A stretch of 28,734 nucleotides of DNA from positions 1 to 28,734 of the forward strand of contig CAXXHG010000006.1 of the NCBI GenBank assembly GCA_963666315.2. Reading direction: 5' to 3'. Both the position numbers and the translations under genes were made by a program. The DNA is from Candidatus Binatia bacterium. GTDB lineage: Bacteria > Desulfobacterota > Binatia > Bin18. Position 1 is the first letter of the stretch. Each line of letters starts with the position of its first letter. The notes under the pieces are model-generated. The model made no database searches. It was given only the letters and a program-made list of their open reading frames with translations, and was not told the origin of the DNA. Of this stretch, positions 13,220 to 15,113 are shown piece by piece.

Positions 13220-13261
13220 TTGCATTTTTTGTCATATTTGCTATATTAGCAATATGACAAA
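13220..13261 (+). promoter_or_regulatory. Sigma70-type promoter overlapped by a palindromic operator; likely leaderless transcript
   Basis: TTGCAT (13220-25), 16-bp spacer, TG-c-TATATT (13242-47), with ATG 7 nt downstream (13254) and no SD. The inverted repeat TTTGTCATATT(T)GCTA-tat-TAGCAATATGACAAA spans 13228-13261. Confidence 0.7.
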
Positions 13262-15113
13262 TATGAGTTCGATAGCGTCCACACTGTACGCTATCCGCGC
13301 TAATCTTGATCTCACACAAGAGCAGCTTGCAGAACGGCTAGGTGTTTCCTTCGCCAGCATCAACCGCTGGGAGGGTGGTATCAATACGCCTCAGAAGGCG
13401 GCACGGACTGCCATTGAGGCGCTTGCAGTGGAGGCGGGAATCAACACCACGGACTCGGCTGCGGACGAAGCTGAGTCCGCGGCACGCGTGACTCGGCGCC
13501 GGTCCCGTCAGCGCCGGACGGCCGTTCCTTCCACCAAGCCCATGGAGCAAATGCTGTGGGATGCGGCCTGCTCCATCCGCGGAGAGAAAGACGCGGCAAA
13601 GTTCAAGGACTACCTGCTGCCGCTTCTCTTCCTGAAGCGCCTGTCGGACGTCTTTGACGATGAGATCGAGCGGCTGGCCGAGGAATACGGAGATCGGCAG
13701 ATTGCCAAAGAGATCGCCGAGAGCGACCACGAGTTGTTGCGCTTCTACTTATCCCCGGAAGCGCGCTGGGGCGTCATCAGCGGTCGCGAATCCCACGAAT
13801 GGCCGCTCGACGACCAGGGACGAAGCACGCAGCCTAAAGACATCGGGGAACATTTGACCAAGGCGGTGCGGGCGGTCGTCCGCTATAACCCGTCGCTCTC
13901 GGGCGTCATCGATCTCGTTGATTTTGCGGCCGAACGCAACGGCGAGCGCGATATCAACCCAGCGAAGCTCGCCGCCGTTGTCGAGACCTTTTCCGACTCG
14001 CGTTATCGGCTCGGTCTTGCCGACGTGCAGCCCGATTTCCTCGGGCGTGCTTACGAATACCTGCTGCGCAAGTTTGCGGAAGGTTCGGGCCAGAGCGCGG
14101 GGGAGTTCTTCACGCCGACTGAAGTCGGCTTCCTGATGGCCCACATCGTGCGCCCGAAGCCTGGTGAGGACTGTCACGACTACGCTTGTGGCTCAGCCGG
14201 GCTGCTCGTCAAGCTCCAACTCGTGGCCCGCGAACTCGACCCCACCAGCCGCGTGCCGCTCAAGCTCTGTGGGCAGGAGCTTCAACCCGAGAGCTACGCC
14301 GTCGCCCATATGAACGCGATCATCCACGACATGGAGGTTGAGATCGTCCGTGGCGATACGATAATCAACCCAAAGTTTAAGACCGCCTCCGGCCAGATCA
14401 GCACACACGACATCGTGGTCGCCAACCCGATGTGGAACCAGCCGTTCATTCCAGACGTTTTCGCCAACGACCCGTTTGACCGCTTCCGTCCCCGGGGCGG
14501 CGTGACCACCGGCAAGGGAGATTGGGCGTGGCTCCAGCACACTCTCGTCTGCCTGAACGAGCGCGGGCGGGCTGTGGTGGTGCTTGACACAGGCGCGGTA
14601 ACGCGCGGTTCGGGCAGCAAAAACGAGGACAAAGAGCGCAACATCCGCAAATGGTTTGTTGCCCATGATCTGATCGATGGCGTGATCCTGCTGCCGGACA
14701 ACCTTTTTTACAACACCAGCGCCGCGGGCGTGATCGTCGTCCTATCAAAGCGCAAGCCAGCGGCGCGGAAGGACAAGATGGTGCTACTGAACGCCAGCAA
14801 GCGTGTGCGCAAGGGACGGCCCAAGAATTTTATCCCAGAGGAGGACATTCGCCCGCTGGCCGCCGCCTACCTCAAGGGTGAGCCTGTGGCGGGAGAGATT
14901 GCCGTCATTACGAGGGAGCAGGCGGCAGAAGCTGATTACAATTTGAGTCCGAGCCGGTGGGTTTTAGGACAAGGGGCCAATGAAGTATCCTCCGTCGGTG
15001 ATCTAATTGCTCAACTGAGGGTGCTGTCAAAAGAGCAATTCGAGCATGACGAAAAACTACTCTCACTCTTGAAGCCGCTAACTGATGGAAAGCCCAATGT
15101 TGCCACCGATTGA
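13254..15113 (+). CDS. hsdM: Type I R-M methyltransferase subunit with N-terminal XRE/Cro HTH fusion
   Basis: [32 protein letters not shown]. Hsd[35 protein letters not shown]...[14 protein letters not shown] (motif I), VANPMW (motif IV), [18 protein letters not shown]. Confidence 0.93.

Follow-up and report, generated by a model that had tools for sequence, protein, structure and literature searches.

We describe here a type I restriction-modification island of a Candidatus Binatia bacterium whose methyltransferase subunit, HsdM, carries an N-terminal XRE-type helix-turn-helix (HTH) domain and whose candidate promoter is covered by an array of 9-bp sites (13227-13262). The island lies on a stretch of 28,734 nucleotides (GenBank assembly GCA_963666315.2, contig CAXXHG010000006.1, positions 1 to 28,734), referred to throughout as the window. 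From the pairing of this domain with such arrays across related loci, we consider it probable that HsdM represses its own operon, which would be the whole hsdM-hsdS-cargo-hsdR island.

The original prediction had proposed that HsdM, through its HTH, doubles as a transcriptional controller. The site array is newly recognised here and goes beyond what was seen at that time. As a conserved feature confined to the clade of HTH-bearing HsdM proteins, with a signature at synonymous codon positions, it lends the proposed controller role strong comparative support; that the HTH binds the sites and that this binding represses transcription is what we infer from the pairing.

A conserved 9-bp site array over the promoter and first codons

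Upstream of the related hsdM genes, a TTGACA-like -35 element is followed by a run of 9-bp units that reaches into the first codons. They follow one another every 9 bp and together span the -10 element, the probable transcription start and the initial two to four codons. The period is visible without any motif: self-match between -50 and +30 is 0.381 at a lag of 9 and 0.319 at a lag of 18, against 0.24-0.32 at other lags, and neither of two control regions has a peak at lag 9. Because lags 3, 6 and 12 are not raised, the period is not that of codons. An iterated site model led to the motif ATnnCAnAY, in which A1, T2, C5, A6 and A8 are each present in at least 92% of sites.

Counts were taken over 90 promoter loci, which are related by descent and transfer and are not independent trials. 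On the + strand at least one site is found in 88 of the 90 promoters and at least two in 72, and 87 of 105 neighbouring pairs are exactly 9 bp apart. Most + strand sites (140 of 193) are in register with the ATG, and a site starts at the start codon itself in 59 of 90 promoters. When both strands are counted, 85 promoters have at least two sites and 57 at least three. The arrangement is direct-only in 42 of 90 arrays, and in 34 of 90 one to three inverted units stand upstream of direct units. The array of the window belongs to the latter type. Its four units jointly form a near-palindrome, with a perfect 11-nt inverted repeat (13228-13238 and 13251-13261) that holds the ATG inside its right arm. 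Across the 28.7-kb window the site model gives 18 matches of at least 9 bits, and the array is their sole cluster. It lies within 13200-13280, the interval that had been suggested as target for an electrophoretic mobility shift assay, so that this target was rightly placed. In a more distant sub-clade (loci L006-L011), a 10-12-bp palindrome with the same ATAGCA core overlaps the -10 region.

The tandem arrangement is specific to these promoters. There are 87 tandem pairs within the 100-bp promoter windows versus 12 in the other 1.39 Mb, both strands counted; of these 12, eight are the same promoters on the opposite strand and four are truly elsewhere. Single sites occur at 21.1 per kb in promoter windows versus 0.57 per kb elsewhere, and 200 mononucleotide shuffles gave a mean of 0.01 tandem pairs and a maximum of 1. 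When the model was trained on 45 loci, the other 45 gave 48 pairs inside the promoter windows and 5 outside, with a pair in 38 of the 45 promoters. No tandem pair was found upstream of HsdM genes that lack the HTH (n=16), where seven matches are scattered over four loci; several of these regions have, judged by eye, a GGAGG-type ribosome-binding motif right before the start.

The units that extend into the gene leave a mark on codon choice. Threonine at codon 2 is encoded by ACA in 36 of 41 cases and threonine at codon 5 in 32 of 33, against an ACA share of 9.5% among 2448 other threonine codons of the same genes. In 57 of 88 genes the last two bases of codon 2 are CA, irrespective of the residue, and the third-position A is motif position 6. 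Since threonine codons are biased to ACA while residues 1-10 are poorly conserved at the protein level, the constraint over the first codons acts on DNA and not on protein.

The candidate promoter

A loose scan finds a sigma-70-like promoter scoring at least 8 of 12 in 71 of the 90 loci. In 44 of these 71, 6-7 nt separate the end of the -10 element from the A of the ATG, and a TG extended -10 is present in 37. A Shine-Dalgarno (SD)-like word between -16 and -5 is found in just six of the 90 loci; in the L006-L011 sub-clade the SD is present and the leader is about 30 nt long. Because the -10 lies so close to the ATG and SD-like motifs are rare, the hsdM mRNA looks leaderless. In the window, both candidate -10 elements lie under the array. 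Among the RNA runs, a single one (X20) contains a share of the stretch, and that share is small (0.06).

Several points weigh against repression of this promoter by HsdM through the array. A stricter sigma-70 scan calls no + strand promoter in 12900-13500, where the loose scan gives 8 of 12. Two substitutions in the X1 and X4 contigs (13245 A>G and 13247 T>C) fall within the favoured -10 hexamer, and because they do so the true -10 may instead be the alternative hexamer at 13233-13238. CA-rich sequence after the start of a leaderless mRNA can aid translation, and the units downstream of the ATG could therefore also act as RNA. The kinship of the loci by descent and transfer means that the counts, and binomial p values drawn from them, overstate independence, and the site model was both seeded and trained on these promoters, a concern that the held-out test answers in part. 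Finally, the mixture of direct-only arrays and arrays with inverted upstream units is odd for a classical dimeric XRE repressor. As to the array itself, the variants of X1 and X4 at 13245, 13247 and 13251 (13247 also in X7) all lie inside the weak unit, and the three strong units are unchanged.

The HTH-HsdM fusion protein

The + strand frame is open from 13215 to 15113, and from the ATG at 13254 it encodes 619 amino acids without a stop. Pfam finds three domains within this one protein: HTH_3 (PF01381, aa 11-46, 34.0 bits against a gathering cut-off of 23), HsdM_N (PF12161, aa 97-246, E 2.2e-23) and N6_Mtase (PF02384, aa 259-571, E 2.7e-70). The NCBIfam hsdM equivalog TIGR00497 matches aa 97-576 with 168.9 bits, which is under its curated cut-off of 242.75. 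Pfam evidence and gene context keep the protein within HsdM, of which it is a divergent subfamily. The NPMW and FFTP motifs are visible in the translation and conserved in the alignment of homologs.

The in-frame fusion that had first drawn attention to this gene is borne out. Both strings quoted in its description, 23 residues of the HTH and 11 of the Arg-rich linker, are found in the translation. A stop or indel between the HTH and HsdM, which would make the fusion an artefact, was sought in Logan contigs from four runs of four studies, and all four cross the junction with 0 gaps (X1, 13115-13559; X2, 13084-13559; X4, 13093-13559; X7, 13002-14264). We count three clearly independent studies, because X2 shows no difference from the window over the part that it covers and could be its source sample. 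Single-nucleotide homopolymer indels between the window and other strains' contigs do occur, at 16469, 20277, 21200 and 21531, and could raise the suspicion of an assembly or indel error at the junction as well. However, 16469 is the earliest indel listed across 13000-22000, leaving none in 13000-16468, and the best 120 homologs listed (80-98% identity) all carry PF01381, PF12161 and PF02384. With gap-free contigs over the junction and every close homolog fused, we rule out an artefact, the chance of which is negligible.

The N-terminal domain is modelled by AlphaFold2 as four helices (aa 4-18, 22-29, 33-40 and 48-60), with a predicted local distance difference test score (pLDDT) of 85-92 across aa 11-60 and aa 33-40 as recognition helix. 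Residues F33, N37, R38, W39 and E40 of this helix are invariant in 39 sequences of 34-100% N-terminal identity. Mean conservation is 0.79 for the HTH, 0.61 for the linker and 0.86-0.88 for the methylase domains. Foldseek matches the HTH to P22 c2, 434 Cro, the N-terminal domain of CapH, DdrO and HipB, and to the controller proteins C.BclI, C.AhdI, C.Kpn2I and C.Esp1396I, at TMt 0.6-0.79 and prob 1.00 but with E values of only 0.03-0.2. The modelled fold is thus that of a generic XRE repressor.

In the full-length AlphaFold model, pLDDT falls below 50 for aa 67-93 before the HsdM body begins. Because the models show helices, then a low-confidence stretch, then the HsdM body, the HTH is predicted to be a domain tethered to HsdM by a disordered linker of about 36 residues. 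Within the linker, R82 of the RVTRRR motif is invariant and R83 is kept in at least 90% of sequences.

Distribution and descent

The combination of an HTH with HsdM domains is already visible in databases: the homolog search gave at least 8000 matches, with 8000 of 8000 scored candidates matching. Among 400 other genomes sampled from the phylum of the window, an HsdM match at E 1e-50 or better occurs in 63, and ten of these 63 encode a full-length HTH-HsdM (L004-L013, 49-80% identity). The next-best group of this sample, at about 50% identity, aligns from query residue 81-96 and lacks the HTH. Scanning species-representative genomes gave 498 relatives; the best 80 are 75-84% identical and bear the HTH. 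The hosts of these best 80 belong to Latescibacterota, Nitrospirota, Chloroflexota, Alpha-, Beta- and Gammaproteobacteria, Gemmatimonadota, Acidobacteriota, Actinomycetota, Spirochaetia and Binatia. Cultured carriers include strains of Chelatococcus, Ancylobacter, Massilia, Thermomonas and Thermithiobacillus. In all, the HTH-HsdM clade spans more than ten phyla.

A quick maximum-likelihood tree was built from the methylase part alone with 48 rows, namely 32 HTH-bearing sequences (the ten of the phylum sample and 22 picked randomly out of the 80) together with 16 that lack the HTH. In this tree all 32 HTH rows form one clade (Shimodaira-Hasegawa-like approximate likelihood ratio test, SH-aLRT, 100) nested among the 16 HTH-less rows, and the branching inside the clade departs from taxonomy. 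At E 1e-30 or better, a 140-aa query spanning the junction matches the representatives of just 28 clusters formed at 50% identity. The nested single clade, its branching against taxonomy, its occurrence in many phyla and the small number of 50%-identity clusters together indicate, at the level of sequence, a tight yet very populous family that acquired its HTH once and then spread widely by horizontal transfer.

A tblastn search of PLSDB plasmids with aa 1-250 gave 141 records, all below 60% identity, and hence no close plasmid copy. The HTH part is covered solely by two Mycoplasmopsis records at 24.6% identity, in which an HTH regulator and a methylase are annotated as adjacent genes. Some homologs are 814-846 aa long (P0045, P0138, P0152 and P0158), and P0045 also bears Methylase_S, which suggests single-chain HTH-HsdM-HsdS forms. 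The genome has, in addition, a second, distant N6_Mtase/HsdM-like gene (G000:C38:120988-122313, L002 and L003, 32% identity, 804-aa open frame) without this HTH.

The island

Two 19-bp direct repeats, identical at 18 of 19 positions with 12 nt exact, flank an island of about 8.8 kb (Table 1). In one contig of run X2, 13122 is connected to 21900 through 30 unrelated letters, so that this contig represents an allele free of the island. Of the open reading frames (ORFs) of the island, none was seen to encode an integrase.

Related loci share the order hsdM-hsdS-hsdR-ygjP, and hsdS and hsdR are separated by variable cargo of 0 to about 6 kb. Of 91 related loci, 11 of which had just about 3.3 kb of downstream sequence, 87 contain HsdS, 60 HsdR, 37 the YgjP-like gene, 14 the ATPase, at the same position each time, and one the ParE-like toxin. 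The YgjP-like ORF of the window covers profile positions 110-201 of 207 in PF01863, that is, the C-terminal half only. We considered this peptidase as a partner specific to the HTH and rejected it, since a YgjP-like gene also follows hsdR in seven of nine HTH-less sister loci.

The frames of the ATPase and hsdR are broken in the window. X1 and X4 are one base shorter at 16469, in a run of C, and X1, X4 and X7 differ by 1 nt at the homopolymers of 20277, 21200 and 21531; homologs read hsdR, which in the window lies in shifted frames, in one frame. These breaks, seen in the window only, may be assembly errors or real decay.

Because there is no second tandem array before hsdR (only four tandem pairs are truly elsewhere), a single promoter probably serves the whole island. 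No separate HTH homolog was found beside the hsdM of nine HTH-less sister loci (tblastn, E up to 1e-3), and no recurring small regulator ORF was seen, judged by eye from translations, within 1.5 kb upstream of these genes. In two HTH-less type I loci, L028 and L032, the frame right upstream of hsdM ends in a DEVDEWVK-type tail, which we take to resemble small excisionase/MerR-like HTH genes; these tails hint at separate regulators in other type I families.

Table 1. Positions of the island, its genes and the candidate control elements in the window
Feature	Position	Strand	Basis or remark
Left 19-bp direct repeat	13093..13111	+	3' end and stop codon of glutathione-reductase-like gene 11759-13111
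Candidate sigma-70-type promoter	13220..13247	+	sequence reading, loose scan 8 of 12
-35-like hexamer	13220-13225	+	
Alternative -10, CATATT	13233-13238	+	TG at 13230-13231
TG of extended -10	13239-13240	+	
-10-like TATATT	13242-13247	+	ends 6 nt before ATG
Operator-like array, four 9-bp units in one register	13227..13262	.	site model
Array unit 1	13227-13235	-	12.3 bits
Array unit 2	13236-13244	-	12.7 bits
Array unit 3, weak	13245-13253		4.7 bits
Array unit 4, holds start codon	13254-13262	+	13.4 bits
hsdM with fused N-terminal HTH	13254..15113	+	619 aa; Pfam, NCBIfam, homologs
XRE/Cro-C1-type HTH domain	13263..13433	+	aa 4-60; Pfam HTH_3, AlphaFold2, Foldseek
Flexible linker	13434..13541	+	aa 61-96, about 36 residues; RVTRRR motif at aa 80-85
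HsdM_N and N6_Mtase domains	13542..14966	+	aa 97-246 and 259-571
hsdS	15085..16416	+	Methylase_S E 1.9e-19; 29-nt overlap with hsdM end
Cargo AAA_21/AbiEii-like ATPase	16413..18036	+	frame broken near 16469 in window
Cargo 90-aa ORF	18033..18305	+	no Pfam match
Cargo ParE-like toxin ORF	18308..18577	+	ParE_like E 3.7e-10
hsdR	18613..21560, end approximate	+	HSDR_N, SWI2_SNF2, T1R_D3, TIGR00348; frame broken near 20277, 21200, 21531
YgjP/DUF45-like HExxH metallopeptidase ORF, 102 aa	21555..21863	+	PF01863 E 5.6e-26
Right 19-bp direct repeat	21882..21900	+	

Alternative explanations

The pairing of HTH and array could be explained in other ways. The HTH may be an accessory module for anchoring to or searching along DNA, with no part in regulation, and the repeats may be co-evolved signals for promoter activity and leaderless translation. 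We give this a small chance. The sites do overlap a TGnTATAnT-like extended -10 and the start codon, so part of the motif could be a promoter or initiation signal. Such signals do not explain units that lie upstream of the -10 and occur in either orientation, and an invariant recognition helix paired with a conserved motif that forms 87 tandem pairs at its own promoter and four elsewhere is what autoregulation predicts; moreover, relatives without the HTH function without such a domain. A role of the HTH that is mainly one of protein interaction or sensing, as in Xre-type antitoxins or CapH-like repressors, with DNA binding secondary, seems to us improbable as well. Candidate partners would be a toxin of the cargo, some phage protein, or the YgjP-like peptidase, which would cut at RVTRRR. 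The HTH has weak sequence matches to the MqsA, HipB and Xre antitoxin families; CapH and DdrO, found among its Foldseek matches, are repressors cleaved by partner metallopeptidases; a metallopeptidase ORF stands at the end of the island, and the linker keeps a short conserved motif amid variable sequence. Yet the presence of the YgjP-like gene in HTH-less sister loci means that it predates the HTH, the cargo varies (ATPase in 14 of 91 loci, ParE in one) while the HTH is constant, and the site array would be left unexplained.

The stretch 13227-13262 might instead function as a hairpin, in RNA or in DNA, that masks for instance the start codon of read-through transcripts, or serve as the site of a host factor. 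RNA of 13222-13268 folds at -15.7 kcal/mol (z -4.4) with a stem that spans the ATG, and the arms of the repeat are perfect over 11 nt. Nevertheless, the 42 direct-only arrays are unable to form this structure, and an Rfam search of 13050-13450 gave no match at E up to 1. A host factor would need to be universal, given the occurrence of the family in more than ten phyla, and of DNA-binding domains it is the HTH alone that is constantly found with the sites. We regard both the hairpin and the host factor as very unlikely, and return below to autorepression by HTH-HsdM as the explanation that we favour.

Relation to known control systems

Transcriptional control had been described in the original prediction as a type II feature, with model type I systems such as EcoKI governed mainly by assembly and ClpXP proteolysis. 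This background needs updating. A review of 2025 states that little or almost nothing is known of how type I systems are transcriptionally regulated (PMC12707154), and RptR was published in the same year as the first dedicated type I repressor (PMC12255303). RptR is a separate four-helix protein of 79 aa from Gammaproteobacteria that binds a 6-bp palindrome, TAGCTA, in a bZIP-like manner and keeps a type I island repressed from three 9-bp repeats that overlap the -10; in enteropathogenic Escherichia coli (EPEC) the island reads RptR-RMS-DarTG-M48 (PMC12255303). The likeness to the locus described here is considerable, with the same hsdM-hsdS-cargo-hsdR-metallopeptidase layout and a 9-bp repeat series overlapping the -10. 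Here, however, HsdM itself bears the XRE-type HTH by fusion, the units read ATnnCAnAY and the family spans more than ten phyla. Our units are not palindromes of the TAGCTA type, and what they share with the RptR operator is limited to a period of 9 bp and a place over the -10. Of the 25 PDB sequence matches that the HTH has, not one carries the RptR label, a comparison made by label.

The enzymes M.SsoII, M.Ecl18kI and M.EcoRII are type II methyltransferases that double as repressors (PMC12707154). They share with HTH-HsdM a repressor-type HTH placed N-terminal to a protective methyltransferase and, presumably, expression tied to the amount of methylase and an operator on the enzyme's own promoter. 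Theirs is a type II operator, at which the promoters of methylase and endonuclease compete. In the present case the enzyme is a type I N6-adenine HsdM, the genes are co-directional, probably with one promoter, and an array of 9-bp period runs into the coding sequence. The SsoII-like enzymes are 5-methylcytosine (m5C) methyltransferases.

The controller (C) proteins C.PvuII, C.AhdI, C.BclI and C.Esp1396I have the XRE/Cro fold as well (Foldseek TMt 0.62-0.75). They exert autogenous control at an operator on their own promoter, and C.PvuII is made from a leaderless mRNA (PMC2175313). Unlike the HTH described here, which is fused to a type I HsdM, C proteins are free-standing, belong to type II systems and usually have their gene ahead of that of the endonuclease. 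Their binding sites are inverted C-boxes, and they act both as activators and as repressors. The operator-like array described here likewise lies at its own promoter, with another motif and in direct or mixed orientation. Canonical HsdM of the EcoKI type (TIGR00497) shares the HsdM_N and N6_Mtase domains and the neighbouring hsdS and hsdR, and HTH-HsdM differs from it by about 96 extra N-terminal residues, comprising HTH and linker.

We found no paper describing an HTH-HsdM fusion or its operator in the full-text literature, a search that did not extend to subscription journals, REBASE notes or supplements, and the available portions of PMC12255303, PMC12707154, PMC2175313 and PMC11096450 do not mention the fusion. 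If our reading is right, the principle of the dual-function methylase has been carried into type I systems, together with a repeat operator like that of RptR and a leaderless promoter like those of C proteins.

A model for autoregulation

We propose that HTH-HsdM is a dual-function protein, acting as type I N6-adenine methyltransferase and, in addition, as autorepressor of the single promoter of its island. The tethered XRE-type HTH would bind the 9-bp ATnnCAnAY units, which extend from the -10 past the start site into the early codons, and occupied units would exclude RNA polymerase. The promoter would stand open in a naive cell and would be shut as HsdM rises. The same switch would set the level of hsdM, hsdS, the cargo, hsdR and the ygjP-like gene, because the genes of the island lie close together on one strand, their ends overlapping or almost in contact. 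Among DNA-binding domains, the HTH alone accompanies the sites in every case; this pairing is what autoregulation predicts, and the geometry from -10 to ATG fits repression.

Repression might further report the assembled complex of two HsdM and one HsdS (M2S1), and not HsdM alone, which would make the HTH an establishment timer built covalently into a mobile type I island. This extension seems to us rather unlikely. A single HTH would here be a weak monomeric binder of one 9-bp unit, HsdS would pair two HsdM in M2S1, and the two HTHs would then fill neighbouring units with avidity. Mixed site orientations would be explained, because a free linker would allow the HTHs to bind in either orientation. 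In a naive host, the island would be expressed at its full level up to the point at which protective M2S1 has formed, after which hsdR and cargo would be throttled. The RVTRRR motif of the linker or the terminal metallopeptidase could give release on infection. Sensing of M2S assembly and timing of expression after transfer had both been raised in the original prediction, and they stay speculation.

Implications

HTH-HsdM points to a second solution for the control of type I systems, one that is built into the enzyme itself, and the candidate operator of the HTH-HsdM family is now defined and can be tested. Autorepression, if true, would account for the safe establishment of a type I island, variable cargo included, after the frequent transfers implied by the distribution of the family. 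The fusion would then constitute a compact, portable and self-limiting expression switch, and it would extend the principle of the methylase as repressor from type II to type I systems.

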